64,000 bases of DNA from Spirochaetia bacterium (GTDB taxonomy: Bacteria > Spirochaetota > Spirochaetia > SZUA-6 > Bin103): positions 4,224,001-4,288,000 of the forward strand of contig CBDBDQ010000005.1 in assembly GCA_965203905.1 (NCBI GenBank), read 5' to 3'. Position numbers and translations under genes: made by a program. This document shows positions 4,469 through 26,028 of the stretch, piece after piece. Below the pieces are notes generated by a model that saw nothing but the letters and a program-made list of their open reading frames with translations, had not been told where the DNA came from and did no database searches. Position 1 is the first letter of the stretch. Every line of letters begins with the position of its first letter.

Positions 4469-4541
4469 GGGCGGTTAGCTCAGTTGGTAGAGCACTTGGT
4501 TTACACCCAAGTGGTCGGCGGTTCGAGCCCGTCACCGCCCA
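4469..4541 (+). tRNA. tRNA-Val (anticodon TAC), CCA not encoded
   Basis: Cloverleaf: gggcggt/accgccc acceptor, tagctcagttggtagagc D-arm, cttgg-tttacac-ccaag anticodon arm, ggttcgagcc T-arm. Confidence 0.97.
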
Positions 4542-8441: not shown

Positions 8442-9164
8442 ATGAGCGTATCGATCATGGAGGCGCGGCGCAGCGGCCGCGGACCCGCCATCTGGCTGGC
8501 CGGCGATCCCGCCGACCTGGGGAAGTGGCTGGAGCGCGGCGCCGTGGGCATCGTCACGAACACGGTGGTGCTGAACGAGATGGTGCAGAAGTACGGCCAG
8601 CTCCTGGACGTGGTGCGCCGCTACCTGGACATCACCGACAAGCCGGTGGTGGTTGAGGTGGAAGGCCATTCCACCCAGGAGCTGCTCGACGTCAGCCACG
8701 TGTTCACCGCCCTGTCGCCGCAGGTGGTGATCAAGATCCCGTGTACCGTGGCCGGCCTCGGCGCTTTCCGCGCCCTGGAGCAGGAGGGGGTGACCACGTT
8801 CTGCACCACGGTGTTCTCGCTGGCGCAGGCGGCGGCGGTGGCACAGGCCGGCGCCAGCCACGTGCTGCCGTTCTGCGAGCCGGTGCGGCAGATGGGCGGC
8901 GACCCCGGCAAGCTGGTACGCGAGTGCGTCGCCATGTTCGCCGGCTGGGAACAGCGGCCCTACGTCACTGCCGCCCTGGTGCGTACGGTGGAGACGGCGT
9001 ACGCGGCACTGCGCAACGGCGCCGACGGCATCATCGTGTTCTGGCCGATCTTCCGCGACATGATGGAACATCCGCTCACCGACACCTGGAACCAGACCTT
9101 CGCCGGCGAGTGGCAGCAGATGCAGGACGCCGGCCTGCTGCAGGGCGTGGTGTCACAGGGGTGA
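8442..9164 (+). CDS. Divergent transaldolase / fructose-6-phosphate aldolase family protein
   Basis: GIVTNT, VVIKIP, CTTVFSLAQA..AQAGA; C-terminal part of ORF 8046..9164; GGAGG RBS. Confidence 0.8.
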   Translation: MSVSIMEARRSGRGPAIWLAGDPADLGKWLERGAVGIVTNTVVLNEMVQKYGQLLDVVRRYLDITDKPVVVEVEGHSTQELLDVSHVFTALSPQVVIKIPCTVAGLGAFRALEQEGVTTFCTTVFSLAQAAAVAQAGASHVLPFCEPVRQMGGDPGKLVRECVAMFAGWEQRPYVTAALVRTVETAYAALRNGADGIIVFWPIFRDMMEHPLTDTWNQTFAGEWQQMQDAGLLQGVVSQG

Positions 9165-10828: not shown

Positions 10829-10857
10829 TTGACGGCCTGCCGTGCACGTGCGACAGT
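10829..10857 (+). promoter_or_regulatory. Putative sigma70 promoter of SBP leader A
   Basis: TTGACG-17 nt-GACAGT with TGn extension; same position relative to the uORF as in leaders B and C. Confidence 0.55.
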
Positions 10858-10885: not shown

Positions 10886-10990
10886 ATGAAGCGCCGCGAC
10901 GACAGCCAGCGCCGTGACCGGTTTCATACTGATCGCGCAGGCGGATTCCGTCTTACCTTTGTCATCTGGCAGGGCACCCCATGGCCCTGA
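10886..10990 (+). CDS. Putative leader peptide A, MKRRDDSQRRDRFHTDRAGGFRLTFVIWQGTPWP (34 aa)
   Basis: Manual translation; N-terminus homologous to the uORFs at 19156 and 25347. Confidence 0.5.
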   Translation: MKRRDDSQRRDRFHTDRAGGFRLTFVIWQGTPWP

Positions 10991-11160
10991 AAACGAGCCG
11001 CAAGAGGATACTCAAAGAACCCATACGAGCGCGGCGTGCGCCCGTCGAGTCACGCGCCGCGCGATTCAATTCGGAACTTGCCGCCTCTGTTAGACCGCCG
11101 GCGTTACGGGCACGAGAGTAGGCGGGGAACGGCAATTCACCATGCTATACTCTCAAGAAT
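10946..11160 (+). ncRNA. Candidate structured cis-regulatory RNA, copy A
   Basis: Homologous to 25797-26010; stems with compensatory changes. Confidence 0.45.
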
Positions 11161-11182
11161 CAAAGGTACGGTGTTACGAGAC

Positions 11183-13123
11183 ATGACAAGAGTGTCGATT
11201 CTCATTTTGTGCATTGCCCTGCCAGGCTCTCTGCTGTGGGCAGCAGCCGCGACCGAAGAAGAGCAGGGATCCCAGACCGCAGCCGCGGTTCCCACTGGCA
11301 GATACCTGGAGTCTCCGCTGCTGACTGCGCGAGTAAGCTCTGGAGAACTGCCTCCGGTGGAAGAGCGACTTCCGGATCAACCGGTGGTGTTCGACGCTTC
11401 CTGGAACGACGTTCCGACCGAAGACCTGGACTTTCAGGTAGGCAGGTACGGCGGAACCCTGAGAGCGGTTCGTACCCACCCCAACTGGGATGCCGACGTG
11501 TGGGCGATGTTGAAAGAGACCCTGGTAGCGTCCCCCGGTTGGATGGATGCAAATCCCAAGGACCTGCGGGGCAACGTCATCCTGGACTACGAGATTTCCG
11601 CGGATGGAACGACCTTCACCTTCACCATGCGGGAAGGGCTGAAATGGTCGGACGGTGTTCCCGTTACCACGGAAGACGTGCGCTTCACCTACGAAGACGT
11701 GCACATGAACGATGAGCTGCAGGAATTCGGCTGGGACATCCTGCAACAGTGGATGAGGGCAAGGAATCAGCCGGACGGAGAACCGATGCTGGTGGAGGTC
11801 ATTGACGACTACACCTTCCAGGTGAGCTTTCCGGAGCCCTATCCCGGCTTCATCAATAGCCTGGCAGTGTTCTGGGGCACCTACCGCGACTTTCTGAAGC
11901 CGAAGCATCACCTGATGAATTTTCACCCCGAGTATACTTCCTCGGACAAGCTCAAGGAGGCGCTGGCCGAGGCAGGATTGGAAGACAATGAATGGTACAA
12001 GCTGTTTCTCCAGGAGGACCACAACACCTGGGAGAAGACCAACACCACCGCGGTCGATTTCCCGAGCCTCTGTCCCTGGATCATTTCCGAGGTGACCCCT
12101 ACCGTAACTCTGTGGGAACGGAATCCGTACTACTTCAAGGTCGACTCGGACGGGCAACAGCTCCCCTACATCGACCTGGTGAGGTCGGAGTACGTAACCG
12201 ACAGAGAGACCATAAACCTGAAAATCGTTGCCGGTGAGCTGGATATTGTCGAACGCGAGGCAGGTGGTCCGAATCTACCGTTATTCAAGGAGAACGAGGA
12301 GCGGGGCGGCTATAACGTGACCCTGCTGCAGCAACACTTCGCGCCGGTCGACATATACCTGAACATGACCCATGCGGACCCGGTGTGGCGAGGGCTCGCA
12401 CAGGACGTCCGGTTTCGCCAGGCGCTGAATATGGCGATCAACCGCCAGGACATCATCGACAAGGTGTTTTACGGGTTTGCGTCGCTGCCTGAGGTGGTGC
12501 CCAGCGCCTACGATCCGGCGCGAGCGAATGAGCTCCTGGATGAGATCGGATTGACCGCGCGGGATGGCGACGGCAACCGACTGGGACCGGACGGCGAGCC
12601 GCTCCTGATACCGATCGAGTGGGCGCCGGAGTCCCCGGACTTTCAGCCGGTGGTCGAGCTGCTGACCCGGGACTGGACGGAACTGGACCTCGACGTGACG
12701 CCGAAAGAGCTGCAGCAGGACTTGCTCCATGAGCGCGAGCGCTCGAACGAGATCAAGATCAGCCTGAACTGGGACGACCTGGAGAAGTGGTGGCTGTTCG
12801 CCACCATCTGGGGCTCGCCGAGATTCGCTACCCATTCGTGGCACCTGTGGTATACCAGCGGCGGCGAATCGGGGGAGCAGGGTCCCGACTGGGTGTACGA
12901 GTTCTTCGACCAGATCGCGGAGGTACGGTCGTCCTCCTATGAGGACGCGCAGCGGCTGGTGAAGGGCGCTCAGCAGATCATGTATGACAACATCCTCTAC
13001 ATTCCGACCGTGCAGAAACTGAGGAAGCCGCTATTGACTTCCGTCAAGCTGGGGAATGTACCTACCAGTGGCATGGTCCTGGTCGGCGTCAACAGCGGCG
13101 AGCAGCTCTTTTTCAGAGAGTAG
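11183..13123 (+). CDS. ABC transporter family-5 substrate-binding protein
   Basis: Signal peptide, GELPPVEERLP, LKWSDGVPVTTEDVRF, RNPYYFKVD..GQQLPYID. Confidence 0.92.
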   Translation: MTRVSILILCIALPGSLLWAAAATEEEQGSQTAAAVPTGRYLESPLLTARVSSGELPPVEERLPDQPVVFDASWNDVPTEDLDFQVGRYGGTLRAVRTHPNWDADVWAMLKETLVASPGWMDANPKDLRGNVILDYEISADGTTFTFTMREGLKWSDGVPVTTEDVRFTYEDVHMNDELQEFGWDILQQWMRARNQPDGEPMLVEVIDDYTFQVSFPEPYPGFINSLAVFWGTYRDFLKPKHHLMNFHPEYTSSDKLKEALAEAGLEDNEWYKLFLQEDHNTWEKTNTTAVDFPSLCPWIISEVTPTVTLWERNPYYFKVDSDGQQLPYIDLVRSEYVTDRETINLKIVAGELDIVEREAGGPNLPLFKENEERGGYNVTLLQQHFAPVDIYLNMTHADPVWRGLAQDVRFRQALNMAINRQDIIDKVFYGFASLPEVVPSAYDPARANELLDEIGLTARDGDGNRLGPDGEPLLIPIEWAPESPDFQPVVELLTRDWTELDLDVTPKELQQDLLHERERSNEIKISLNWDDLEKWWLFATIWGSPRFATHSWHLWYTSGGESGEQGPDWVYEFFDQIAEVRSSSYEDAQRLVKGAQQIMYDNILYIPTVQKLRKPLLTSVKLGNVPTSGMVLVGVNSGEQLFFRE

Positions 13124-13204
13124 TCGGAGTTCGCCTGCTGGTTACCGCGTGGCGCTGCGGCCGGGAGCCTCGGCGCCACGCCTTCAGCAACATCGTAGCG
13201 CAGC

Positions 13205-14203
13205 ATGGTAGGATATATTCTCGGCCGTATCCTTCAGGTGGTGCCGCTGTTGATCGCTCTGTCCATCGTCAGCTTTCTCATCATCGAGCTTCCCCCCGGC
13301 GATTATCTGACTTCCCTCATCTTGCGCCTGGAGCAGTCCGGCAAGCAACTCAACGACGAAGAGGTGCTGCGGCTGAAGAAACAGTACGGTCTGGATAGAC
13401 CTGCGGTCGTCCGTTACTCCATGTGGATATGGAATATTCTCAGCGACGGGGACTTTGGCAGATCCTTTACCTGGCAGAGACCGGTAGCCGAAGTAATCAC
13501 CGAGCGCATCGTCTTGACCATGGTCATATCGATAGCTACCCTGCTGTTCACCTGGGTGGTGGCGGTCCCGGCGGGTATCTATTCGGCGCTCCGGCAGTAC
13601 TCTCCATTCGACTACGTTACCACGTTCTTCGGCTTCATCGGGTTGTCGACTCCCAACTTTCTGCTGGCGCTGATCCTGATGTGGTTGGCCTTCAACCATC
13701 TCGGTGTGGCAGTGACGGGGCTGTTCTCTCCCGAGTATGCGGATTCCGCCTGGAGCCTGGCCAAGGTAGGGAACATGCTCAGCCACATCTGGGTACCCAT
13801 TCTGGTCATAGGCACGGCCGGTACCGCAGGGATTATCCGCGTGATGCGGGGATGCCTGCTGGATGAGCTCCGCAAGCAGTACGTAGTCACCTCGCGCGCC
13901 AAGGGGTTGGCCGAGACCAGGTTGGTGTTCAAGTATCCGGTGCGGGTCGCGGTCAATCCGCTGATCAGCACCATTGGTTGGCTGTTGCCGGCGATTATCT
14001 CCGGAGAAACCATAACGGCGATTGTCCTGAACCTTCCGACTTCCGGCCCGATGTTGTTCCAGGCGCTGCTCGCTCAGGATACCTACCTTGCCGCGAGCTT
14101 CGTGTTGATCCTGGCATTCTTGACCATAATCGGAACCTTGATCTCGGATCTTCTGCTGGTCTGGCTGGATCCCAGAATCAGATACCAGGGTGTTGCCAAG
14201 TGA
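13205..14203 (+). CDS. ABC transporter permease (OppB/DppB-like)
   Basis: LPPGD, GDFGRSF, EAA-like loop (YVVTSRAKGL), terminal DPRI. Confidence 0.92.
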   Translation: MVGYILGRILQVVPLLIALSIVSFLIIELPPGDYLTSLILRLEQSGKQLNDEEVLRLKKQYGLDRPAVVRYSMWIWNILSDGDFGRSFTWQRPVAEVITERIVLTMVISIATLLFTWVVAVPAGIYSALRQYSPFDYVTTFFGFIGLSTPNFLLALILMWLAFNHLGVAVTGLFSPEYADSAWSLAKVGNMLSHIWVPILVIGTAGTAGIIRVMRGCLLDELRKQYVVTSRAKGLAETRLVFKYPVRVAVNPLISTIGWLLPAIISGETITAIVLNLPTSGPMLFQALLAQDTYLAASFVLILAFLTIIGTLISDLLLVWLDPRIRYQGVAK

Positions 14204-15312
14204 CTGCGACCGAGGTCGCAAGAGATCGCGAAGAACGCTACTATGTCGCCTCGCAATGGCAACTTATCTGGAGGAACTTCAAGAAACACAGGCTCGGATT
14301 GGCCGCATTGCCGGTACTTGGTTGTCTCTATTTCCTGGCCGTATTTGGCGAGTTTGTCAGTGCCTACACCCCGTTGACCTACTTTCGGGATCGCGAGAAC
14401 GTGCCGCCGCAGAGGATCCACTTCGTGCGCCCGGACGGTACCTTTCAACTGCGCCCGTTCATCTACGGGTTGCAACAGGAGATGGATCCCGACACGTTTC
14501 GGCAGGTGTACCGGCACGATACCACAAGCATCGTTCCTCTGCGCTTCTTCGTGACGGGTGAACCGTACAAGATGTGGAACCTGTTCCACGCCGACAAGCA
14601 CCTCTTCGGAACCGATGGAGAAGCTGTCTTTCTGCTCGGCACGGACCGCTTGGGGCGGGATCTCTTGTCGCGGGTGATATATGCGTCACGCATCTCTCTG
14701 ACCGTGGGTCTGGTCGGGGTGATAATGACGTTCGTGTTCGGACTCGTGCTCGGCGGCGTGTCCGGCTACTTCGGCGGCGTGATCGATACGGTGGTAATGA
14801 GAGCGATTGACTTCGTAATATCGTTGCCGACCATTCCCCTGTGGATGGCGCTGGCGGCGGCGCTTCCGGAGAGCTGGAGCTCGATTCAGGTCTATTTCGC
14901 CATTACCCTCATCTTTTCGATCATCGGTTGGGCCGGCCTGGCGCGCGTAATCAGGGGAAAGCTCCTGGCGTTGCGAGAAGAGGACTTCGTGATGGCGGCG
15001 AAGATCTCCGGAGCCTCCAACGCCAGCATTATCGGCAGGCATCTGCTGCCATCGTTTGCCAGCTATCTCATTGTAAACCTGACGATCGCGGTACCCTCGA
15101 TGATCCTCGGCGAAACCGCCTTGAGTTTTCTGGGTCTGGGGATTCGCCCTCCCTCGGTAAGCTGGGGTACGTTGCTGCAGGACGCCCAAAAGCTACAGGT
15201 ATTGGCCCATCAACCCTGGCTGCTGATACCGTGCATCTTCGTGATCGTTACGGTATTGATGTACAATTTTCTCGGTGACGGACTGCGCGATGCCGCTGAT
15301 CCCTATCGATGA
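14200..15312 (+). CDS. ABC transporter permease (OppC/DppC-like)
   Basis: LLGTDRLGRD, ETALSFLGLG, WGTLL, GDGLRDAADP; GTG start overlaps the upstream stop. Confidence 0.92.
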   Translation: MTATEVARDREERYYVASQWQLIWRNFKKHRLGLAALPVLGCLYFLAVFGEFVSAYTPLTYFRDRENVPPQRIHFVRPDGTFQLRPFIYGLQQEMDPDTFRQVYRHDTTSIVPLRFFVTGEPYKMWNLFHADKHLFGTDGEAVFLLGTDRLGRDLLSRVIYASRISLTVGLVGVIMTFVFGLVLGGVSGYFGGVIDTVVMRAIDFVISLPTIPLWMALAAALPESWSSIQVYFAITLIFSIIGWAGLARVIRGKLLALREEDFVMAAKISGASNASIIGRHLLPSFASYLIVNLTIAVPSMILGETALSFLGLGIRPPSVSWGTLLQDAQKLQVLAHQPWLLIPCIFVIVTVLMYNFLGDGLRDAADPYR

Positions 15313-15338
15313 ATCGCTGAATCGCCGAGGTTTGAGGA

Positions 15339-16901
15339 GTGAGCACGTTGACGGCGAATGATGACAACGTTTCCGGACAGATCGAAAGAATGTCGAGCCT
15401 TGTTCCCCGGGCGCGCGAGCTGCGTGAGAGATACCAACGGGATCCGCACCGGCCGGCGTATCATTTCGTTGCCCCGGAAGGTATCTGCCACCCGTTCGAT
15501 CCGCAGGGCTGCATCTATTGGAAAGGGAGGTGCCACCTGTTCTACGCATACCAGGTGGAGGGCGTGGGCGTGTGGGGACACGCCTCCAGTGCCGACCTGG
15601 TGCACTGGATCCATCACCCGATCCCGTTGGGAGTGTCGCCCGGGGACCCGGAGGAACAGGTCTACGCCGGCGGCTCGCTGGTAAACAAGGATGGCGTGCC
15701 GACCATGATCTACCACGGGGTGAACGCCGGCACGTGCATTGCCACCAGTGAGGACGACGAATTGATCCATTGGACCAAGCATCCGGCAAATCCGGTGATC
15801 CCCAAGCCCAGGGAGGGTGATGATGGCTATGGCAAATACCATGTCTGGGACACCTGCGGCTGGCTCCACGAGGATACCTACTACTCCATTTGCGGGAACC
15901 ATCCGTTCGAGCTTCCCGAATCGGACGGCGACACAGCCTACCTGTTCCGCTCTCACGACCTGGTCAACTGGGAGTATGTCCATCCGTTTTATCAATCCGA
16001 CCGGCGCTGGACGGAGGCGAACGAAGACTGCTCCTGTCCCGATTTCTTTCCGATCGGGAACAAGCACATGCTCATGTTCATCAGCCATACCCACGGCACC
16101 CAGTACTACCTGGGCAGCTACGACGGGGAGAGATTCGTGCCCGAGCGCCATGCTCGGATGAGCTGGGCGGGCGGACCCCTGTTCGCGCAGGAGAGCCTGC
16201 TGGCTGGAGACGGCAGGCGCATCTTCTGGGCCTGGGTGTTCGAGTCCCGGTCGCGGAACGCGCAACTGTCCGCCGGCTGGGCGGGGGTGATGAGTCTTCC
16301 TCGGGTGCTGTCCCTCGGCCAGGATGGCACTTTGCTTATCGAACCTGCCGAGGAGCTGCAGATGCTCAGGCGGAACTACCGCCGGCAGGAAGGTGTCGGC
16401 CTTGCGGACGGGTCGGAAATGAGATTGAAGGGGATGGAAGGGGACTGCCTGGAGCTCGCTCTCGAGGTAGACGATCCCCGTGGGCAGCAGCTCGGGGTGA
16501 TGGTGCGTTGTTCTCCGGATTGCGAGGAGCACACCGTGATTCTGTTCGACGACGAGGCACGGACGCTGCAGGTGGACACCTCGCGCTCCAGCTTGAGCCC
16601 GGAAATCGTGCAACCGTGGCCTCAACACGGCACCTCCTTCTCGCCCAATCCGCTGGACGGGCGGGAAGATGTCCGGGTCCAGAAGGCGCCCTTCGAACTG
16701 GCGCCCGGTGAGCCGCTCAGACTGCGGATCTTCCTTGACCGCTCGATTCTGGAGGTGTTTGCCAACAGCCGGCAGTGCGTGACGCAGAGAATCTACCCGA
16801 CGCGAAGCGACAGCATGGGGGTAAGGCTGTTCAGCCGAAAGGGCCGCATCTCGGTGCGGTCCATCGAAGCCTGGGATATCACCGCGGCCAACCCCTGGTA
16901 A
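15339..16901 (+). CDS. Glycoside hydrolase family 32-like protein with non-canonical active-site motifs
   Basis: HRPAYHF..FDPQG, WGHASSADLVHW, SLPRVL, IFLDRSILEVFAN; CSCPD in place of WECPD. Confidence 0.85.
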   Translation: MSTLTANDDNVSGQIERMSSLVPRARELRERYQRDPHRPAYHFVAPEGICHPFDPQGCIYWKGRCHLFYAYQVEGVGVWGHASSADLVHWIHHPIPLGVSPGDPEEQVYAGGSLVNKDGVPTMIYHGVNAGTCIATSEDDELIHWTKHPANPVIPKPREGDDGYGKYHVWDTCGWLHEDTYYSICGNHPFELPESDGDTAYLFRSHDLVNWEYVHPFYQSDRRWTEANEDCSCPDFFPIGNKHMLMFISHTHGTQYYLGSYDGERFVPERHARMSWAGGPLFAQESLLAGDGRRIFWAWVFESRSRNAQLSAGWAGVMSLPRVLSLGQDGTLLIEPAEELQMLRRNYRRQEGVGLADGSEMRLKGMEGDCLELALEVDDPRGQQLGVMVRCSPDCEEHTVILFDDEARTLQVDTSRSSLSPEIVQPWPQHGTSFSPNPLDGREDVRVQKAPFELAPGEPLRLRIFLDRSILEVFANSRQCVTQRIYPTRSDSMGVRLFSRKGRISVRSIEAWDITAANPW

Positions 16902-16926
16902 CCGCGGCATCAAGAGATCAGTTCAA

Positions 16927-18441
16927 ATGGAATCACCTCGGTACTATGACCGGCCCGACATGGCGCCATGTTCGACGCTTCACTTCCGCCCGGAAGGGGC
17001 ATTGGTCGGGGATGCGTCGTTCTTTCGGCACGGCGATGAGTGTCACATCTTCTACCTGAGCAAGCGCAACGACGATCCGCCGCGCCTGCCGACGTGTCAG
17101 CTCGATCATGCGGTCAGCAAGGACCTCCTGCATTGGGAAAGATTGCCCACGGCTCTGTTTCCGGGAGAACCGGGGGAGCCTGATGACGATGGCATCGGCG
17201 GATGTTCCATCGTGTGTCGGGACGGCAGGTTTCACATGTTCTACGCTGGAACCAATCCCCAGGTGACCTACCATGCGGAGAGCCGTGACCTCATCGAGTG
17301 GCGGAAGGATGACCCGCTGAAGCCGGTCATCGTTCCCGATCCGCGCTGGTACATGGCGCACGACGCGGCGGTGCAGGATCCGTACAACGAGCGGGGTTGG
17401 CGGGATCCGTTTCTGTTTCATGACGACAAGCAAGGACGCTACGTGATGACGGTGACGGCCAGGCGCAACCAGGGACCATGGCGCGAGCGGGGCTGCGTTG
17501 CCTGGGTGGTCAGCAGCGACCTCGTCGACTGGCAGGTGCAGGCGCCTCTCTACGCTCCTTCGCTGGGAATGAACCTGGAGGTCACCGAGCTGTTCGAGAT
17601 GGATGGTCGCTACTTCCTGATTTTCTGTCATGGAGAGACCAATACGACCCGTTACCGGGTGGCGGATCGGTTGGAGGGTCCCTACCGGTGTCCGGCGGAT
17701 GACGTCCTGCTGCCGAACTACCTGTACGCGCCGCGGACGATTGAACGGCTTGGAAAGCGGTACCTGATCCCATGGGTGGCGGATCGCCTCAACGGCAGCG
17801 ACGACAATCGGTCGGAGTTCGGCGCCGAAGGAGTTACCTGGGGCGGCGCCTTGGGCACGCCCCAGGAAATGCGCTGCCTCGCGGACGGCAGACTTGCGCT
17901 GTTCTTCCCGGACATCGTGACAGGGCTGGCCGGCACGCAGACGCTGGGTGCAGGCAGCCTCGACCATCTGCGGACCGAGCGCGGCGAATGGAAGCGGCAG
18001 GGAGAGACGCTACTGGCGTCGTCCGATCAGGGAATGGCACGCGGACTGGTGGCCGTGCGCGGACACGACTTCCTGCTCTCGTGCCGTATCAGGATTGGCC
18101 GTGGCGTAGCCGCGGGATTGATCCTGCGCGCCAGTGAAGACGGCGCGGCCGGCTACTACTTGCGCCTGGAGCCTGCACTGAAGAACGTCTCCCTGTGGAG
18201 GTATCCGCGGCCGTGGTTCTGTGCCAGGCCAATGGCGTTCCGGGTAATCCCGGAGCTGGACCATGGGCAAACCATAGAGGTGAAGGTAATCCTGCACCGG
18301 CACGTGCTCGACGTATACCTGGATGACCGCCAGGTGTTGAGTCGCGCCGTGTACGACTACCGGGAAGGGCAGTTCGGATTGTTCGTCGAAGACGCGGCGG
18401 CAGAGTTCGGACCTCTCGCAGCGAACACCCTCAAGGAGTGA
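16927..18441 (+). CDS. Five-bladed beta-propeller glycoside hydrolase (GH32/clan J)
   Basis: VGDA, HAVSKDLLHWE, WRDPF and LEVTE motifs, plus a C-terminal beta-sandwich. Confidence 0.8.
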   Translation: MESPRYYDRPDMAPCSTLHFRPEGALVGDASFFRHGDECHIFYLSKRNDDPPRLPTCQLDHAVSKDLLHWERLPTALFPGEPGEPDDDGIGGCSIVCRDGRFHMFYAGTNPQVTYHAESRDLIEWRKDDPLKPVIVPDPRWYMAHDAAVQDPYNERGWRDPFLFHDDKQGRYVMTVTARRNQGPWRERGCVAWVVSSDLVDWQVQAPLYAPSLGMNLEVTELFEMDGRYFLIFCHGETNTTRYRVADRLEGPYRCPADDVLLPNYLYAPRTIERLGKRYLIPWVADRLNGSDDNRSEFGAEGVTWGGALGTPQEMRCLADGRLALFFPDIVTGLAGTQTLGAGSLDHLRTERGEWKRQGETLLASSDQGMARGLVAVRGHDFLLSCRIRIGRGVAAGLILRASEDGAAGYYLRLEPALKNVSLWRYPRPWFCARPMAFRVIPELDHGQTIEVKVILHRHVLDVYLDDRQVLSRAVYDYREGQFGLFVEDAAAEFGPLAANTLKE

Positions 18442-18511
18442 ACTTGCGACGATGTAGTTCTCGACCAGCGCCCTGCGCAGGTGGCGTTCGTCCGCCATGC
18501 GGTGCCCCGGT

Positions 18512-18901
18512 TCAGAGTTGCTCCTCGATCCACCTGCCATCGTGCGCGGGGTTGTAGATGAGACCGCGCTGCATGTCCACGGCCAGGTCCAGTAACTCCA
18601 TGACCATATGGCCGACCAGCACCGGCGTACCGTCGGGGAGGTTGGTAACTTCGAGCGTGCCGGACCGTCCCAGGACGGTGAATCTGACCTCCGAATAGGC
18701 GGTCAAGGAACGCGTCGTGCCGACCGGCGTGAGCCCCAACTGGGAGATCAGATTTTGAGGCAACGAGAGCCGGGTGGCACCGGTGTCGACCAACGCATCG
18801 CGCACTTCCAGACTCCGCACTCTCGCGCGCTCGATGATGCCGCTCTCAGCCCGGATTTCATCGGCTCGATTGACCAACGTGATTTCCGTCGTATGGCGCA
18901 T
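18512..18901 (-). CDS. Clan AA (retropepsin-like) aspartic protease
   Basis: ALVDTGATRLSLP; VLVGHMVMELLDL. Confidence 0.85.
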   Translation of the reverse strand: MRHTTEITLVNRADEIRAESGIIERARVRSLEVRDALVDTGATRLSLPQNLISQLGLTPVGTTRSLTAYSEVRFTVLGRSGTLEVTNLPDGTPVLVGHMVMELLDLAVDMQRGLIYNPAHDGRWIEEQL

Positions 18902-19099
18902 GGATGCGCCAGGAACGTACCATCTCGGCCAGGGGCAGGCAACCGAGCCCGCTCCGGCGATCGCGTGACCGGGCGGCTGACATCTTCCTGATCAGCAATC
19001 GCTCGAGCGCTTCGACCTCGCGGTCGTGATCTTGCGTCCCCGTAAGAGATTCGCCGAGCTGCCGTGAAACGCGGCTTGGCTCGCTCGGCTCACGCGCGC

Positions 19100-19127
19100 T
19101 TGACGGTTGGCGGTCGTGTGGTACAGT
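19100..19127 (+). promoter_or_regulatory. Putative sigma70 promoter of SBP leader C
   Basis: TTGACG-16 nt-TACAGT with TGn extension. Confidence 0.6.
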
Positions 19128-19155
19128 GACTGCTTCGGGAGTCGGAAAGCCGCTC

Positions 19156-19239
19156 ATGAAGCGCAGTGACACATCCCACCGCAGCCGCCGGTTCGCTCCA
19201 ACGCAACCGGTGCGTCCCCCCCGGCAGGCAGTCGCGTAA
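19156..19239 (+). CDS. Putative leader peptide C, MKRSDTSHRSRRFAPTQPVRPPRQAVA (27 aa)
   Basis: 13 of the first 22 aa identical, without gaps, to the uORF at 25347. Confidence 0.5.
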   Translation: MKRSDTSHRSRRFAPTQPVRPPRQAVA

Positions 19240-19559
19240 GCCACGCACAAGTAAGCAATAGCGTTACCCAACCCGGGCTGCGTGCAGCCTTGCGGCAGTA
19301 CCCGACACCTCCAATCCTCCGGCGTTGCCGGACCTGGGAGCGAAGCGCTGGCGACCGGCCGGTCCGTGCAAGGGGGTGTCCGTGACGAGATAGACCACGC
19401 CACGGGACCCGCGTAACGCCGCGTCGCGCACGCAGTTCCCGAGTAGCACATGGGCTGCCCGCCTCGCTAATGGCCGCCTGCGGTCGATGTAGGCAACGAG
19501 AGCAGGCGAGGGGCCGGGCCGTGAGATCGGAGAATGCTCTCGAACGAGATCGGAGGTAA

Positions 19560-21098
19560 TTCGCCCCGGTAGTCGAGAAACTCGTCATCGGCGACTGGGC
19601 GATCGGCGGGAGCGAGCATAACTGGCGCAGCTATAACGTGCCGTTCTCGGTCATGCAAGGACAGTTGGCGGAGAGTTGGGAAACGCCGGACGCCACCACG
19701 ATCATCGTCAAGGTCCGCCCGGGCGTTTACTGGCACGACAAGCCACCGATGAACGGTCGGGAGCTGACCGCCAGCGATATCGAGTTCAACTATCATCGCC
19801 TCTTGGGGCTCGGCAGCGGTTTCAGCGAACCCACGCCGTTCAGTTGGACACTCCCTGCCGTCACATCCGTGACGGCCACCGACAAATCGACGGTAGTCTT
19901 CAAGCTGACGAGGCCAGACCTCTTTGGGGTGCGCAAGGCATTCGACACGTGGGATACGTGGATCTACCCTCCGGAGGTCATCCAGCAACACGGCGACATG
20001 AAGGATTGCAGGAATCTGGTGGGCACCGGGCCCATGGAGCTGACGGACCTGGTGGAAGGCAGCTCTTGGACGTGGACCCGGGTTCCCGACTACTGGGGGT
20101 TCGACGAGAAGTTCCCGGACAACCGCCTGCCCTACGTCGACGAGCTGAACGCCCTGGTCATGCCGGATGCGGCGGCGCGGATCGCGGCCCTGCGCTCGGG
20201 TCAACTCGATATGTTGGCGACTCTCGGCGACTCTCAAATGAGGTCACTCGACCAGGTGGAGAGCCTGCGCCGGACCGATCCCGACATCAGGATGTGGGAG
20301 ATCGCGTTTCGGTCCGACAACGCATTCTCCTTCGTAAACCAGCAGAATCCGCCTTTCGATGACATCCGGGTACGCCGCGCCATGCAGATGGCTCTGGACC
20401 TGGAGACGATTGCGAACACCTACTTCAAGGGTTTGGCCGATCCGACGCCACAGGGAATGATCCACAGCGACAATGCCGGAACTGGCACGCCGTTCGACGA
20501 GTGGCCGGAGGAGGTCAAGCAGTACTACCGCTACGATCCGGAACGGGCCAAGCAGCTTCTGGCCGAGGCGGGCTATCCCGATGGCTTCAAGACCCGGCTG
20601 GACTATGGGAACCGCTTCGATGCGAACTACGCAGAGCTCGTCATTGGCTACTGGGGTGAGATTGGCGTCGACGTCGAGCTGTCCGTTAAACCCGGGCCGG
20701 AGATGGTAGCCATCCAGCGGGGGCATACGACGGACGGAATGATGCACTTTTCCAGCGCTGCCACCTACGCCGATGCCGGCACGCTGAAGGCGGTTTTCAC
20801 CTCCGGCTCCACCAGCAACTTTGGCAACATCAACGACCCGGATTTCGACGCTCTGATCGAACGCGCAGAGGCAGCCACGACGCTGGAGGAACGGAATCGG
20901 CTCACCAAAGAGGCGAATCTGTACGCCATAGCCCAGCACTGGGAAGCCGTGGGTCCGACCAGCCCGCAGTTCAACGTCGCCCAGCCGTGGGTCAAAGGCT
21001 ATGACGGGGAGATATCGCTCGGCATGCAGGGCCAGTTCTTGACGCTGACGGCCCGCGTCTGGATCGATCAGGATCTGAAGCGGGAGATGGGATTCTGA
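19560..21098 (+). pseudogene. 5'-truncated family-5 substrate-binding protein (signal peptide and N-terminus deleted)
   Basis: Frame open from 19560 (FAPVVEKLVIGDW...GQLAESWE), aligning to about residue 90 of the paralog at 26029; in-frame TAA at 19557 directly after an orphan GGAGG. Confidence 0.75.
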
Positions 21099-21121
21099 TT
21101 TAGCTGTTGGCACATGACGAA

Positions 21122-21151
21122 GTGGGATGGCGGCGCAGGCCGCCGTCCCAC
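21122..21151. other. Intercistronic hairpin between SBP and permease (also at 30319-30348)
   Basis: gtgggatggcggc-gcag-gccgccgtcccac. Confidence 0.6.
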
Positions 21152-21168
21152 ACCCGAGCCCGCCTGCA

Positions 21169-22134
21169 ATGCGAACCTACATCATCCGCCGCGTCCTGCT
21201 GCTGATCCCGACGTTCCTGCTGCTGACGGTCCTGGTGTTTCTCTCGGTGCGCTTCCTCCCCGGCGACGTCGTCGACGCCATGATGGACCGGCTGTCGAGG
21301 CGCGAAGGCGGGATGGAGCACTTCGACCGCGAGCGGGTCGAGCGCATGCTCGGGCTCGACGTGCCGGCGCCGGTGCAGTACGTGCGCTGGCTGGGCGGCA
21401 TCTTCCTGCACGGCACCCTGGGCGAGTCACTCCTTGGCGGAGTTGCGGTCGAAGAAAAGATCATCGGCCGGCTGGCGATCACCGTCGAGTTGGGCGTGCT
21501 GTCCATCCTCATCGGCCTGGTGATCGCGGTGCCGGTGGGCATCTACTCGGCGGTGCGGCAGGACACCGCGGGCGACTACGCCGGCCGTTCCATCGCCATC
21601 ATCGGCCTGGCCACGCCCAACTTCTGGCTCGCCACCCTGGTGCTGACCTTTCCCGCAATCTGGTGGGCGTGGGCGCCGCCGCTGCGCATGGTGGCGTTTG
21701 TCGACGACCCGCTGCGCAACCTCGGCCACATGCTCATTCCCAGCCTCATACTGGGCACCTACCTGTCGGCTACCGTGATGCGCATGACGCGCACCATGAT
21801 GCTGGAGGTGCTGCGCCAGGACTTCATCCGCACCGCCTGGGCGAAGGGACTGAAGGAGCGGGTGATCATCCTGCGGCACGTGATCAAGAACGCGCTGATC
21901 CCGGTGGTGACGCTGATCGGGCTGCAGTTGCCGATCCTGGTCGGCGGCTCGGTGATCATGGAGAACATGTTCGCGCTGCCGGGTCTGGGGCGGCTGATGC
22001 TGGAGGCCCTCACCGCGCGCGACTACCCGGTGGTGTCGGGCATCAACCTGTTCTTCGCGACCGCGGTGATGACGATCAACCTGTTGATCGACATCCTCTA
22101 CGGCTACCTGGACCCGCGGGTCCAGTACCGCTAG
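21169..22134 (+). CDS. ABC transporter permease (DppB-like)
   Basis: MRTYIIRR, LPGD, QDFIRTAWAKGL, DPRV. Confidence 0.92.
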   Translation: MRTYIIRRVLLLIPTFLLLTVLVFLSVRFLPGDVVDAMMDRLSRREGGMEHFDRERVERMLGLDVPAPVQYVRWLGGIFLHGTLGESLLGGVAVEEKIIGRLAITVELGVLSILIGLVIAVPVGIYSAVRQDTAGDYAGRSIAIIGLATPNFWLATLVLTFPAIWWAWAPPLRMVAFVDDPLRNLGHMLIPSLILGTYLSATVMRMTRTMMLEVLRQDFIRTAWAKGLKERVIILRHVIKNALIPVVTLIGLQLPILVGGSVIMENMFALPGLGRLMLEALTARDYPVVSGINLFFATAVMTINLLIDILYGYLDPRVQYR

Positions 22135-22228
22135 GAGGCTGGCGCGTGCGACAGACTCCTAGCGGACGGTGGGGATGGGCCGAAAGCGGCGCCGTGGCGA
22201 CGGTAGCGGGGCGGTGAGGGGGCCATCG

Positions 22229-23194
22229 ATGGGCGACCCATCCAGACCGCAGTCCAAACCCCGGCCCTTTCTGGTCGACCTGCTGCGGCGGCTGGTGCGG
22301 GAGCGCCCGCTGGGGGCGGCGAGCGCGGTGGTCATCCTGCTGCTGGCGGTGGTCGCCATCCTGGCCGACGTCCTGGCGCCCTTCCCGTTCGCCGAGATGC
22401 ACCTGGTCGACCGGCTGGGCGACCCGTCGGCTACCTACCTGCTGGGCACCGACCAGCTCGGCCGCGACGTGTTGAGCCGGCTGGTGTACGGCGCCCGCAC
22501 CTCGCTCGGGGTGGGCTTTGCCGCCACCCTGCTCAGCACCCTGGTGGCGCTGCTGGTCGGCGGCGTGGCCGGCTTCGTCGGCGGCAAGCTGGACATTCTC
22601 GTGCAGCGCTTCGTCGACGCCTGGATGTCCTTCCCCGGCCTGTTGCTGCTGCTGACGATCATCACCATCGTCGGCCAGGGCATCCTGCAGATCATCGTCG
22701 TGCTCGGCGTCACCTCCGGCATCGGCAACTCGCGCGTGATCCGCAGTGCCGTGATCGGCATCAAGGAGAACCCCTACTTCGAGGCCGCGCGCGCCATCGG
22801 CAGCGCTCCCTGGCACATCCTGAAGCACCACGTGTGGCCGAACATCACCGCGCCGGTGATCGTCGTGTTCTCGATCACGATCGGCGGCATCATCATCGCG
22901 GAGGCGTCGTTGAGCTTCCTGGGGTTCGGCCTGCCGACCACGGTGCCGAGCTGGGGCGGCATGCTGAGCCGCGAGGGGCGTCAATTCATGGAGATGGCGC
23001 CGCGTCTGGCGATGTGGCCGGGGGTGTGCCTGACGGTGGTGGTGTACTGCCTGAACATGTTCGGCGACGCGGTGCGCGACCTGCTCGACCCGCGGCTGCG
23101 GGGCGGTGGCGGCGGCGCCGGCCTCGGCAGCGGCGGCATGAGCGCCCGCGCCATCGAAGGCGCCCGCCGCGCCCTGCACAAGGCGGCGGGGTAG
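22229..23194 (+). CDS. ABC transporter permease (DppC-like)
   Basis: LLGTDQLGRD, EASLSFLGFG, WGGML, GDAVRDLLDP. Confidence 0.9.
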   Translation: MGDPSRPQSKPRPFLVDLLRRLVRERPLGAASAVVILLLAVVAILADVLAPFPFAEMHLVDRLGDPSATYLLGTDQLGRDVLSRLVYGARTSLGVGFAATLLSTLVALLVGGVAGFVGGKLDILVQRFVDAWMSFPGLLLLLTIITIVGQGILQIIVVLGVTSGIGNSRVIRSAVIGIKENPYFEAARAIGSAPWHILKHHVWPNITAPVIVVFSITIGGIIIAEASLSFLGFGLPTTVPSWGGMLSREGRQFMEMAPRLAMWPGVCLTVVVYCLNMFGDAVRDLLDPRLRGGGGGAGLGSGGMSARAIEGARRALHKAAG

Positions 23195-23209
23195 GCGGGC
23201 CGTACCTGT

Positions 23210-23270
23210 TGCCTCACCCAAACATCCACACGAAATAAAACGGGTGCCTCATGCAAATATCCACACGAAA
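23210..23270. repeat. Two imperfect 26-nt direct repeats (period 35) flanked by a short inverted repeat
   Basis: tgcctcacccaaacatccacacgaaa / tgcctcatgcaaatatccacacgaaa; acctgtt...aacaggt flanks. Confidence 0.7.
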
Positions 23271-23414
23271 CAGGTGGCGGTAAAGGGGTGGGTGATCCTC
23301 ATCGAACTCCCCCAACTGCCTCGATCCAGGCGAGCGCCTCGGCAAGAGCCGAATCGAGACCGGAGACCGACTGCGCTACTCGGGTCTAACCGCCGCAAGG
23401 CTCGCGAACCCCGA

Positions 23415-23786
23415 TCACGGCCGCGTTGCGACCCGGCGGAGTCTTATGCGTCCGGCGCGATAGACGGCGATAATCGGTGGCGTCCAGTCGATCTCTTCCG
23501 CTATTAGCGCGTCGATATCAGCTATCACGTCATCCGGTCGACGCCCTCCAGGTCTCATATACAAGATCCCCGTGAACGGTTCACCGCGATGCACGGCCAA
23601 TGTCCCAAAATCTGAATCATGGGTGATCACGAATCGAGACAGTGCGTACGCCCTTGCCAATATCTCGCTGTCAGTGGAATGGCCCCACCGCTCCTCGTGA
23701 GCCGAGATGACTGCGACGCCCCGTTCCCGGAGGAAGTGAACGACCGGAACCGCGATATTCATGTCAGCCACAAGTGGCGGCAGCAC
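23415..23786 (-). CDS. DUF5615 family PIN-like toxin
   Basis: LVADMNI, DSEIL, ITHDSDFG motifs; paired with DUF433. Confidence 0.85.
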   Translation of the reverse strand: MLPPLVADMNIAVPVVHFLRERGVAVISAHEERWGHSTDSEILARAYALSRFVITHDSDFGTLAVHRGEPFTGILYMRPGGRRPDDVIADIDALIAEEIDWTPPIIAVYRAGRIRLRRVATRP

Positions 23787-23787
23787 A

Positions 23788-24039
23788 CTAACGAACCGCC
23801 CCCGCCCGTTTCACTTCGATTATGACATCATTGTGAATTGCCTCTGCTGCGTATTGGATCGCTGATGTAACGTCGTCAATCGTGAGTTCAGGATACGAAT
23901 CAACGATCTCGTGCTGCGACATCCCATCAGCCAGCAAGCCCAGGATATGATCAACACTCAGGCGGGTTCCTTCGATAGTCGGCTTACCACCAAGGATTTC
24001 CGGATTGAGTACAATGCGGCGCACGGCTCCAACCTCCAC
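23788..24039 (-). CDS. DUF433 family antitoxin
   Basis: NPEILGGKPTIEGTRL..V; YPELTIDDV..A..YA. Confidence 0.9.
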   Translation of the reverse strand: MEVGAVRRIVLNPEILGGKPTIEGTRLSVDHILGLLADGMSQHEIVDSYPELTIDDVTSAIQYAAEAIHNDVIIEVKRAGAVR

Positions 24040-24124
24040 CGGACAGTACTACGGACACGTGAACACAATGTAGCATACCGGTGGCATATTCGCTCGGCAC
24101 GGGCAGGCCGGCTGAGGCCGGCAG

Positions 24125-24549
24125 CCGCTGGGGGCGGCGAGCGCGGTGGTGATCCTGCTGCTGGCGGTGGTCGCCATCCTGGCCGACGTCCTTGGCGCCC
24201 TTCCCGTTCGCCGAGATGCACCTGGTCGACCGGCTGGGCGACCCGTCGGCCACCTACCTGCTCGGCACCGACCAGTTCGGCCGCGACGTGCTGAGCCGGC
24301 TGGTGTACGGCGTCCGCACCTCGCTCGGGGTGGGCTTTGCCGCCACCCTGCTCAGCACCGTGGTGGCGCTGCTGGTGGGCGGCGTGGCCGGCTTCGTCGG
24401 CGGCAAGCTGGACATTCTCGTGCAGCGCTTCGTCGACGCCTGGATGACCTTCCCCGGCCTGTTGCTGCTGCTGACGATCATCACCATCGTCGGCCAGGGC
24501 ATCCTGCAGATCATCGTCGTGCTCGGCGTTACCTCCGGCATCGGCAACT
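24125..24549 (+). pseudogene. Internal fragment duplicate of the permease at 22229 (frameshifted)
   Basis: Near-identical to 22307-22730, with an extra T (gtccttggcg) and both ends missing. Confidence 0.85.
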
Positions 24550-24588
24550 ATCTTTCGCCAGGCTGGGTGGGACTGGAGAGAACGATGA
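24550..24588 (+). pseudogene. C-terminal remnant of a HicA-type toxin (IFRQAGWDWRER*)
   Basis: I..QAG is typical of the HicA C-terminus; its TGA overlaps the hicB ATG (ATGA). Confidence 0.6.
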
Positions 24589-25001
24589 ACTACCCGGTCG
24601 TGATCCACGAGGATGCGGACAGTGACTTTGGCGTGACAGTGCCGGATCTCCCGGGCTGTTTTTCCGTTGGCCAAACGATGGACGATGCCCTTACGAATGC
24701 CGCCGAGGCCATCATCACTCATGTAGAGGGGCTTCTCCTGGATGGCGAGCCCATTCCGGAGCCAACAAAGATCGAATCACATCGGGCCAACGCTGACTAT
24801 AGCGACGGCACATGGGCCATGGTGACCTTGGACCTCTCACGGGTGAGTGGCAAAGCACGGCGCATCAACGTCACCATTCCCGAACGAGTTCTGTCACGGG
24901 TGGACGACTATGCGAAGGAGACAGGTGATTCTCGATCGGGTCTGATGGCCGCCGCGGTGCTGGAATATATCAGCCAACGGCTCGAGAAAGAGGTGAGCTG
25001 A
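24585..25001 (+). CDS. hicB: HicB family antitoxin
   Basis: MNYPVVIHED...FGVTVPDLPGCFSVG..A.EAI; C-terminal RHH (RINVTIPERVLSRVD). Confidence 0.9.
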   Translation: MNYPVVIHEDADSDFGVTVPDLPGCFSVGQTMDDALTNAAEAIITHVEGLLLDGEPIPEPTKIESHRANADYSDGTWAMVTLDLSRVSGKARRINVTIPERVLSRVDDYAKETGDSRSGLMAAAVLEYISQRLEKEVS

Positions 25002-25291
25002 CAGATCCGGCTGCAAACCAGTCGCCCGAGGAGGCCAATTCCTCGGTCGCGCCGCTTCGGCAACGGTTTCGTGCGAAGCGACCGACGAGAGGCATTGGCA
25101 CGGTGGCAGGAGCGGTGGCGGTTCCCTGAGGGCCGCTGGGCTGAATCGTCGCGGACTCCGGACGCCGCGCCCCAAGCTGTCCAGAGCACAGCCGCCGTGC
25201 ACAGGGCAGCCGCGGGCTCGCTCGCCATGGCGCGGCGACGTTTCGATCTACGCCCAGCGCAAGGCGGTCACGTTTGGTGAGCTCCGAGTCG

Positions 25292-25320
25292 TTGACAGGG
25301 CGCCGCGCCCATGCAAGCAT
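25292..25320 (+). promoter_or_regulatory. Putative sigma70 promoter of SBP leader B
   Basis: TTGACA-17 nt-AAGCAT with TGn extension. Confidence 0.5.
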
Positions 25321-25346
25321 GCTTGGCCTGGGGTCGACGGATGCCC

Positions 25347-25445
25347 ATGAAGCGCCATGATGACAGTCAGCGCAGTGACGGGTTGGCGGTGACGCAGCCG
25401 ATGCACCCCCCCCCACCCACACTTTTCGAACCGACGAACAACTAA
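25347..25445 (+). CDS. Putative leader peptide B, MKRHDDSQRSDGLAVTQPMHPPPPTLFEPTNN (32 aa)
   Basis: Homologous to the uORFs at 10886 and 19156, with synonymous substitutions. Confidence 0.5.
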   Translation: MKRHDDSQRSDGLAVTQPMHPPPPTLFEPTNN

Positions 25446-25796
25446 CCGCTCCGGCTGATCGCCCCGTACGCAACCCCGCGCACGCCGTCGCCTTCACTAC
25501 CGCCGTAGCTGTCGGTGGCACCGGCTCCGTCCATCGCCGAACCGGCATGCGGGCCGCCCGCACCGTTATCGTCGACCGCGACCGTGCCGGATCCGCGCCC
25601 GCGACTGACTGCCGGCAAAACCCACCTCCGGCGTCGCCGGTCAATCAGACTCGCTGCTTCGCCGACCACCGCCGCGCGGGCGTTGTGACGCAGGTCCCGA
25701 CCTCCGGCGAGCGGTCGGCGTTTGCACGATCGGGCGCCCACCCGCTGCGCGCACCGCACCCCATCTTACGTCTATTGCCCACCCGAGACAGGCAGC

Positions 25797-26010
25797 TTCC
25801 GTCACGCATCTGGCAGGGCACCCTGTGCCCCAAGAGAGAGAGGTGCAAAATGATACTCAAAGAATCTCACGCGCGCGCGGCGTGAGCCCGGGTGAACCCG
25901 GCTGAGTCACACGCCGCGCGCTTCACAAATTGACTCAGACTGGCCGTCCGCGTTGCGGGCCCGAGAGTAGCCAGGGAGCGGCAGTCCGCTCCGCAATACT
26001 CCAAAAAACC
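25797..26010 (+). ncRNA. Candidate structured cis-regulatory RNA, copy B
   Basis: Homologous to 10946-11160; 12-bp stem 25873-25884/25910-25921. Confidence 0.45.
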
Positions 26011-26028
26011 TGATTTATGGAGAAAACC

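Follow-up and report, generated by a model that had tools for sequence, protein, structure and literature searches.

What is a short reading frame that opens with the residues MKRxDxSxR doing at three separate places in one stretch of a spirochaete genome? The stretch analysed here (the window) comprises 64,000 nucleotides (nt) of an uncultured Spirochaetia bacterium (assembly GCA_965203905.1, contig CBDBDQ010000005.1, positions 4,224,001 to 4,288,000, forward strand), whose genome measures 7.99 Mb with 66% G+C. An initial annotation, made from the DNA letters alone, had placed three such open reading frames (ORFs), named A, C and B in their order along the window, and had read them as a translated sensor or arrest peptide or a small regulatory protein family. 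All three exist at the positions given to them (Table 1), and each marks the 5' end of a transporter operon's long leader. Aligned without gaps, B and C are identical at 13 of 22 residues (59%), and the five synonymous codon differences described between them are correct (GAT/GAC, AGT/TCC, AGT/AGC, GCG/GCT and CAG/CAA), as are the two between A and B (GAC/GAT and AGC/AGT). The switch between serine codon boxes (AGT to TCC) is more fragile, as it appears in the ungapped alignment but not in a hand-made alignment with two 3-nt gaps, which has more nucleotide matches. The similarity of the MKR peptides far exceeds chance: MKRxDxSxR with a start codon occurs 11 times in the genome, where base composition predicts about 0.4 by our own arithmetic, and ten of the 11 matches form one family, the remaining one being unrelated.

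Our answer, which we hold tentatively, is that the three MKR ORFs may well be the conserved core, at the 5' end, of a promoter-leader cassette, multi-copy and restricted to one lineage, that precedes and would drive ATP-binding cassette (ABC) transporter operons dependent on a substrate-binding protein (SBP), along with a few other nutrient genes. The parts of this cassette and their order are observed, whereas what we say about its translation and regulation is proposed. The cassette is confined to one group of uncultured spirochaetes.

The repeat unit of the cassette is 122-134 nt long (most commonly 122, 126 or 134 nt) and the MKR ORF forms its 38-nt core. It runs from an imperfect palindrome with GTSAC half-sites, through a TTGAC promoter-like site and 25-30 nt that include a conserved ACGGAT, to ATGAAGCGCCATGATGACAGTCAGCGCAGTGACCGGTT; about 25-30 nt separate the promoter-like site from ATGAAGCGCC. 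A search of this genome for the core, allowing up to 10 mismatches, found 29 copies, and an nhmmer profile (E < 1e-6) found 36; neither search showed any inside genes or reversed. Units occur singly (loci A, B and C are examples) or follow one another head to tail in tandem arrays of at most seven, where the MKR ORF of an internal unit crosses the next promoter. In the family alignments the units of an array are joined by the GTSAC-bearing repeat that forms the palindrome of locus B (GGCGGTCAC-GTTTG-GTGAGCTCC). Taken modulo 3, the lengths of 51 units fall into classes of 24, 20 and 7, from which nothing can be inferred because three copied unit types dominate. The core of A departs from the family consensus at five of 38 positions. 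The nucleotide-profile match of C is weak (nhmmer, E = 5.8) and its peptide-profile match is strong (1.7e-10), with C itself included in the query alignment. The layout of C is nevertheless that of the family (TTGACG, 16 nt, TACAGT, about 28 nt, ATGAAGCGC, then an SBP_bac_5 gene downstream), and it has three closer relatives in two other genomes, with which it makes up a diverged "C-type" subfamily.

A BLAST search with the whole leader of B found matches in eight of ten other genomes of the same genus, and in none of 13 genomes of the sister genus nor of 17 genomes from seven other families of the order. The initial annotation had pointed to related genomes as the place to look for the motif, and strong peptide-profile matches come from seven of 24 genomes of the family (34, 58, 51, 141, 29, 15 and 1 matches per genome). 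Unit copy number thus varies widely within the genus: one genome of 4.9 Mb, in which arrays reach seven units, yields at least 141 peptide-profile matches, four times the number in the 8-Mb genome that contains the window. Candidates for deeper homologues, with E-values of 0.006-0.7 in four other genomes of the genus and in all 13 of the sister genus, were rejected as noise, since the 13 inspected were without a start codon or matching context. In a search of the whole window against Rfam 15 at the gathering score nothing matched the cassette, the sole match being a tRNA gene (4469-4541), and positions 25200-26100 gave zero Rfam matches at E up to 5.

Downstream of the MKR ORF at each of A, B and C, a family-5 SBP gene heads an Opp/Dpp-type ABC operon. 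Genome-wide, 88 tblastn matches cover the N-terminal part of the SBP of B, about 16 of them with a recognisable unit within 1.1 kb upstream; the 88 SBP_bac_5 paralogues amount to a very large family expansion, in which the region encoding the signal peptide is conserved at the DNA level. A few units precede instead a homocysteine-methyltransferase-like gene, an OppD-like ATPase gene or a family-1 SBP gene (assigned by eye from translations). Leaders are 78-86% identical in nucleotide sequence between paralogues whose SBP proteins share only 43-55% identity, and therefore the 5' region either evolves in concert or has spread recently.

The promoter-like site is found in most units. In 84 of 104, TTGAC is followed after 16-18 nt by nAnnnT, which ends 25-30 nt before the ATG; the typical form is TTGAC(A/G), usually 17-18 nt, and then a TAnnnT-like hexamer. 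C-type relatives have TATAGC, TATAGT or TAGAGT at the hexamer position. A strict consensus promoter scan of the leader of B called zero sites, so that the promoter status derives from family conservation alone. The sequence TGAC or GTCA occurs about six times in the 122-nt consensus unit, against about 0.8 expected from composition (our count).

Downstream of the last unit the leader keeps a fixed order: a hairpin, a poly-C tract, a motif with stops in two frames, about 300 nt of C-rich, G-poor sequence, a structured block that we call element 2, and then the SBP gene, which starts about 20 nt after element 2. The hairpin, based on CCGGTT, is likely but not proven; 85% of cells pair, and covariation is barely above that of shuffles (23-35 of 500). 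C-type copies retain it with a different 3' arm, and at C the MKR ORF encloses a CCGGTT...AACCGG hairpin and a run of seven C. In 17 of the 32 terminal copies the C run reaches at least 9 nt; the longest seen measures 55 nt and spells 19 consecutive proline codons in the MKR frame (locus L038, genome G004, contig 4, 507900-509900, terminal unit). Such a homopolymer is slippable, and its length differs between copies; its exit frame relative to the next conserved motif is distributed 8:15:9. That motif, the two-frame stop, has the family form AACAACTAACCGCTC(C/G)GGCTGA and is present in 32 terminal copies. Over the 100 nt after the hairpin the median GC skew is -0.35 (C 42%, G 23%; n = 53 terminal units), a value reached by 0.34% of genome windows, so that a rut-like, C-rich and G-poor stretch lies 3' of the MKR ORF in the family median, as it does in B; such a stretch is a feature of uORF-bearing, Rho-dependent leader attenuators of the mgtA, corA and tna type.

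One frame through the middle leader is nearly free of stops. It is the frame of a second upstream ORF (uORF2) that opens element 2, and it has no stop in 22 of 28 leaders, compared with two of 28 and five of 28 for the other frames; only one of 21 distinct stop columns falls in it, although it offers about a third of the mutational opportunity (about 0.003 by our binomial estimate). In B this open stretch spans 168 codons (25379 to 25885). The MKR ATG falls in this frame in 15 of 37 leaders, where the ORF ends at the uORF2 stop (12 leaders; 92-180 codons) or at the ATGA of uORF2 (three). Gene callers have predicted 111 ORF clusters from such leaders in public assemblies, with both ends conserved and large indels in the middle. 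A hidden protein gene in the leader was nevertheless rejected on the ratio of nonsynonymous to synonymous change (pN/pS), on base composition and on Pfam. In the stop-free frame pN/pS is 1.11, against 0.84 and 0.75 in the other two, variability is flat over codon positions (0.098, 0.091 and 0.072), G+C at codon positions 1, 2 and 3 is 0.72/0.61/0.70, unlike adjacent genes (e.g. 0.57/0.43/0.62), and no Pfam family matches at E up to 1. G is enriched at its first codon position (0.38 vs 0.22 and 0.24). The frame is either a relic or kept open because translation matters while the product does not.

Element 2 occurs in about 35 copies in this genome, and locus C is without it. RNAalifold gives it a fold of -20.6 kcal/mol with 22 pairs, and there are further hairpins; in B an 11-bp G+C-rich helix pairs 25870-25885 with 25907-25921. 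Its 5' GAUACUC and its 3' AAUACUCUC could each pair with GAGAGUA, with a compensatory change in two sequences and a broken pair in three. In two leaders (genome G000, contig 5, 5100487-5102549 and 7567692-7566043) element 2 is split by an insert of about 2 kb; the long leader-strand ORFs of these inserts look spurious (rich in Pro and Arg), and the opposite strand may carry a mobile element. The element opens with GGAGG, 6-7 nt, and ATG ATA CTC AAA GAA CCG CAC GCG CGC GCG GCG TGA, so that uORF2 reads MILKEPHARAA in most copies; beyond the one in B there are about 54 others in the genome and in related loci. At its start position ATG, GTG or TTG stands in 54 of the 62 motif matches listed, at least three of which are not copies of element 2. 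Codons 2-6 vary almost solely at third positions; their pN/pS is 0.11, compared with 2.4 and 3.5 in the other two frames, and none of 2000 permutations was as low. Judged by these sequence patterns, uORF2 is a much better supported leader peptide than the MKR ORF, which we refer to below as uORF1.

Table 1. Positions of cassette parts and first operon genes at loci A, C and B, in window coordinates
Feature	Position	Strand	Remarks
Locus A promoter-like site, TTGACG, 17 nt, GACAGT	10829..10857	+	read from sequence; family layout
Locus A uORF1 (MKR ORF)	10886..10990	+	34 codons; no poly-C tract; terminates within element 2
Locus A element 2	10944..11164	+	nhmmer at 4234944-4235164, E = 3.2e-20; uORF2 start AGG, not ATG
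Operon A SBP_bac_5 gene	11183..13123	+	PF00496, E = 5.8e-51; start read from sequence
Locus C promoter-like site, TTGACG, 16 nt, TACAGT	19100..19127	+	read from sequence
Locus C uORF1 (MKR ORF)	19156..19239	+	27 codons; diverged C-type subfamily member
Operon C SBP_bac_5 gene	19638..21098	+	PF00496, E = 1.3e-63
Locus B imperfect palindrome	25263..25285	.	just 5' of the -35-like box
Locus B promoter-like site, TTGACA, 17 nt, AAGCAT	25292..25320	+	read from sequence; family statistics
Locus B uORF1 (MKR ORF)	25347..25445	+	32 codons; 1 of 38 positions off core consensus; peptide profile E = 1.5e-14
Locus B poly-C tract, 9 C	25406..25414	+	Pro codons in any frame; family 4-55 nt
Locus B conserved motif AACAACTAACCGCTCCGGCTGA	25437..25458	+	stops in two of three frames: TAA 25443-25445, TGA 25456-25458
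Locus B C-rich, G-poor middle leader	25459..25849	+	GC skew -0.13 to -0.51
Locus B element 2, structured block before SBP gene	25790..26020	+	about 170-230 nt; nhmmer
Locus B uORF2, MILKESHARAA	25850..25885	+	GAGG/GGAGG Shine-Dalgarno 5'; stop in 5' arm of helix
Operon B SBP_bac_5 gene	26029..27858	+	PF00496, E = 4.4e-68; ORF listing starts at 26017; two permease genes follow

Is uORF1 translated, and does its peptide matter? Of the 29 copies in this genome 27 start with ATG or GTG, as do 84 of the 87 found across the family loci compared, and a GGA lies 4-14 nt 5' of the ATG in 87 of 104 units. ATGAAGCGC is kept in the diverged C-type (four of four) and in A, and the GGA upstream of the ATG also persists in diverged subfamilies. 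No stable RNA structure was found over the core (RNAalifold, -1.4 kcal/mol, seven pairs, no compensatory change; single-sequence folds no better than shuffles, with z-scores of 0.75, -0.07 and -1.57), and the start would therefore be accessible. Among the signs of selection on the codons that the initial annotation had counted on, pN/pS does lean the expected way, being 0.54-0.56 in frame and 1.21 and 1.24 in the other frames, although 108 of 2000 column permutations were as low. Frameshifts, stops and lost start codons, which it had considered damaging, are each seen, yet the start codon is kept in most copies: codon 8 is TAG in one copy, the ATG is replaced in a few (by ATC, AAG or ATA), one (locus L041) carries a 2-nt insertion, and at least five (L008, L037, 5088393, 7677096 and L039) have +1 insertions between codons 13 and 20 that change the reading frame beyond codon 12. 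Over residues 1-12 most copies resemble one another. Total length ranges from 7 to more than 86 codons, terminal copies ending after 31-47 codons or passing 86 according to the exit frame from poly-C. Most terminal copies (nearly all 32) run into Pro-Pro or poly-Pro codons, up to 19 Pro, A being without them. Taken together, the evidence for selection on the MKR peptide, as read from these alignments, is weak.

Two possible partners of the core were also considered and rejected. Binding of CsrA to the conserved ACGGAUG was dropped as no CsrA gene was found in the genome, which is 98.7% complete. As for a trans-acting antisense RNA, the complements found (scattered 14-mers with one mismatch and one exact complement of 15-16 nt, contig 5, about 4111663-4111677) are at about chance level.

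How might the cassette work? We lean, without much confidence, towards a mechanism in which the MKR ATG loads ribosomes onto a Rho-prone, C-rich leader, the sequence of the peptide being immaterial. The ATG would be a real initiation site, important for translation as such and not for its peptide, and ribosomes from it would enter the poly-Pro codons, after which they would terminate at the two-frame trap or continue along the C-rich leader, keeping it covered. The termination factor Rho has poly-C and other C-rich, G-poor RNA as its classical substrate, and here such RNA would serve for its loading. The extent and pace of leader translation, depending on poly-Pro, elongation factor P (EF-P), the supply of Pro-tRNA and the frame, would set how much transcription reaches the transporter genes: pausing at poly-Pro and the exit frame would modulate the cover of the leader and thereby gate Rho-dependent termination ahead of these genes. 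The genome encodes both Rho (116 bits) and EF-P. Loss of EF-P lowers expression of polyproline-encoding mRNAs via Rho when rut sites are present (PMC5021804). A run of one codon in a short leader ORF, as in classical amino-acid attenuators of the trpL or hisL type, is found here in the form of Pro; in 25100-26100, however, we found no terminator-like site on the + strand that could belong to a terminator/antiterminator pair with a U-tract, the two sites there being both on the - strand. A bolder version, which we regard as doubtful, would make each cassette a stochastic switch, poly-C slippage deciding between capture at the stop trap and reading in the stop-free frame. With ribosomes trapped, Rho would have access to about 300 nt of bare C-rich RNA and the operon would be off, whereas ribosomes in the stop-free frame would reach the uORF2 stop, shield the leader and leave the operon on.

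Several observations weigh against this ribosome-loading mechanism. The codon signal of uORF1 is borderline, lying in the lowest 5.4% of permutations, and the wobble bases of codons 6, 8, 9, 10 and 12 vary in just 1-3% of copies even though synonymous changes were available; at least part of the conservation of the core is therefore at the nucleotide level. The four C-type copies show no codon periodicity, with 5, 7 and 6 substitutions at positions 1, 2 and 3, and the Shine-Dalgarno match of uORF1 (GGA) is weak beside those of uORF2 and the SBP genes. Members of the family are young (78-87% nucleotide identity), and recent spread may account for much of the conservation. Internal units of arrays share the ATG and are without a poly-C tract, which the model does not explain, nor does it explain why there are arrays at all. 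Neither A nor C has a strong excess of C over G (skews of -0.10 and -0.17), and A has no poly-C. Finally, the C-rich leader runs for about 300 nt, and a ribosome stalled at poly-C would leave part of it exposed.

One may therefore consider other explanations, and the chief of them has a real chance of being right, namely that the MKR ORF is incidental. The core and the GTSAC palindromes would then be a DNA operator or activator site, or a site for a protein or RNA in the 5' untranslated region, within a promoter module that unequal crossing-over and gene conversion copy and homogenise, the ATG persisting by youth and base-level constraint. Wobble positions of CAG CGC AGT GAC CGG are indeed nearly invariant, G-to-C changes at the GTSAC centre keep the motif and break hairpin pairing, and the ATG is conserved no better than the neighbouring bases; the excess of TGAC/GTCA, the tandem units of variable number, the leaders so much more alike than the SBP proteins, the C-type copies with no codon pattern, and the 2-nt and several +1 insertions that alter the peptide where the DNA stays similar all fit as well. 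Less easily accommodated are an in-frame pN/pS about half that of the other frames and the persistence of ATGAAGCGC and its upstream GGA in diverged subfamilies, and the core, at about +20 to +60 from the inferred start, lies further downstream than most operators. No regulator has been identified, and the poly-C tract, the two-frame stop motif and the stop-free third frame would be left unexplained. Alternatively, the cassette might be a selfish or neutral interspersed repeat of the BOX, BIME or Correia kind, spread by recombination and with no regulatory role of its own. We think this unlikely: while the strongly differing copy numbers per genome, the modular build with a variable number of tandem subunits and the restriction of strong matches to part of one genus would be expected of such a repeat, every leader examined has the cassette in the same orientation and at a fixed place before the downstream gene, none of the copies found lies within a gene or is reversed, and the unit has promoter-like features, a uORF2 with a strong coding signature and a leader of extreme composition.

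The two remaining explanations both take the peptide itself as the product. In one, which we find very unlikely, the MKR ORF encodes the N-terminal end of a real small protein, 130-200 residues long (MKRHDD...poly-Pro...QLTAPADRPVRDPAH...CCSDHRHAWRC...MILKEPHARAA) whose expression is switched by poly-C slippage. The 15 of 37 leaders in phase, the depletion of stops in one frame, its G-rich first codon position and the 111 predicted ORF clusters with both ends conserved speak for it, but over half the copies do not share the phase, the middle has large indels, and the pN/pS, flat codon-position variability, base composition and Pfam results given above show no amino-acid constraint and no likeness to adjacent genes. 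The other, to which we give the least credence of all, is the reading of the initial annotation, by which a sensor or arrest peptide, MKRxDxSxR...TQPxxPP, halts the ribosome through its own amino-acid sequence, as TnaC, SecM and MifM do. That reading is partly supported by the position in a leader, the promoter-like site, the GGA, the Pro-Pro codons and the synonymous lean, and it draws on the alike first 12 residues of most copies and the Pro-Pro that follows in most terminal ones. The indels, variable length and borderline codon signal speak against its dependence on a specific peptide. The segment TQPxxPP is not kept across the family, its prolines deriving from poly-C, which encodes Pro in any frame; the region from codon 13 to the prolines is frameshifted in the five copies named above; no conserved motif at a fixed distance from a stop or stall site is found in ORFs of 7 to more than 86 codons; Arg9, otherwise "invariant", and also Ser7 and Asp5 are lost in the C-type; and the pN/pS of uORF1, at 0.54, is a far weaker signal than the 0.11 of uORF2.

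Comparison with known systems places the cassette, in kind, as a 5' leader bearing upstream ORFs combined with a mosaic interspersed repeat. The mgtCBR leader of Salmonella reportedly carries a proline-codon leader ORF, mgtP. Like such ORFs and their coupling to EF-P, the cassette has a short ORF that opens a long leader and enters consecutive Pro codons, downstream C-rich RNA that could load Rho, and a genome encoding Rho and EF-P; unlike them, its Pro run is a poly-C tract of 4-55 nt whose length and exit frame vary, and the module is multi-copy and tandem. In the tna leader the TnaC arrest peptide blocks a rut site adjoining its stop codon, and here too a uORF closely precedes a rut-like region 5' of the regulated genes, but TnaC uses conserved residues at a fixed spacing from the stop, whereas the C-terminal part, length and stop position vary in the cassette. 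Pneumococcal BOX elements, the BIMEs of E. coli and the Correia elements of Neisseria are mosaic intergenic repeats with variable tandem subunits, and the cassette resembles them in having dozens to hundreds of copies per genome, a modular build with an internal unit repeated 1-7 times, intergenic locations near gene starts and the ability to carry promoter-like sequence, a likeness by architecture alone. It differs in its single orientation before one gene class, its two ORF starts, its 170-nt structured block and its having no terminal inverted repeats that we could see.

The nearest precedent among spirochaetes is the ospE/ospF/erp family of Borrelia, paralogous exported-protein genes that share an upstream homology box. 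There, too, a highly conserved 5' flank and promoter precede diverged coding parts, a likeness by description, not by sequence; those genes, however, lie on prophage plasmids under the control of DNA-binding proteins, and we know of no uORF, poly-C tract or tandem units in their upstream box. Homopolymeric tracts also underlie phase variation at the contingency loci of Neisseria, Haemophilus and Campylobacter. The cassette shares with these a poly-C tract of 9 nt or more near an ORF start, tract length that differs between copies, and out-of-frame stops just 3' of it, but the ORF behind the tract shows no protein-level constraint and the regulated product would be the downstream operon. To our knowledge the combination of tandem promoter-uORF units, poly-C, two-frame stop trap, an unconstrained frame without stops and a second uORF whose end lies in a helix has not been described. 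A narrow literature search (leader peptides, spirochaete symbionts) yielded nothing on the cassette, which is not proof of absence.

If the proposed regulation is correct, one portable module would control a very large set of ABC-transporter operons in uncultured high-G+C spirochaetes, uniting tandem promoters, two uORFs, a hypermutable homopolymer and a Rho-prone leader. It would provide a testable case in which translation of a non-conserved leader ORF gates transcription, and would show a regulatory cassette spreading over paralogues that had already diverged. Should the switch exist as well, a clonal population with tens to more than 100 cassettes per genome would express a shifting mosaic of SBPs, and phase variation would act via translational shielding from Rho, not via the coding sequence of the regulated gene. 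Even if the MKR ORF is incidental, the family illustrates clearly how 5' regions can evolve in concert. For annotation, the consequence is that more than 100 "hypothetical protein" clusters called from these leaders show no protein-level constraint.

Contigs from metatranscriptomes that match at 85% or more cover the core, leader, element 2 and gene (four runs from two studies, two of the runs labelled sponge metagenome). They cover 27-29 of 30 bins, and the 122-nt tandem joint appears in two runs. Since these are contigs and the libraries may contain DNA, they speak for presence alone, not for transcript starts, ends or levels, and bins without cover carry no meaning.

The genes around the three cassettes add some further observations. 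In operon A the SBP gene is followed by two permease genes and two genes of glycoside hydrolase family 32 (GH32), and therefore the substrates of these transporters need not be peptides. A sulfatase gene (8741-10702) lies just 5' of cassette A, and the two GH32 genes (15339-18441) end the operon; this suggests that the "peptide-type" transporter of operon A takes up carbohydrate. The true start of the SBP gene of operon C may lie upstream of the one listed, as similarity to paralogues begins at about 19561 (BLAST matches, query 482-681). Upstream of cassette B, the ORF at 24192-25001 encodes a HicB-like antitoxin domain (PF15919, E = 1.6e-46) and RHH_5; the same open frame also holds, further upstream, a short fragment that matches an ABC-permease domain, and this fragment may be a gene remnant.

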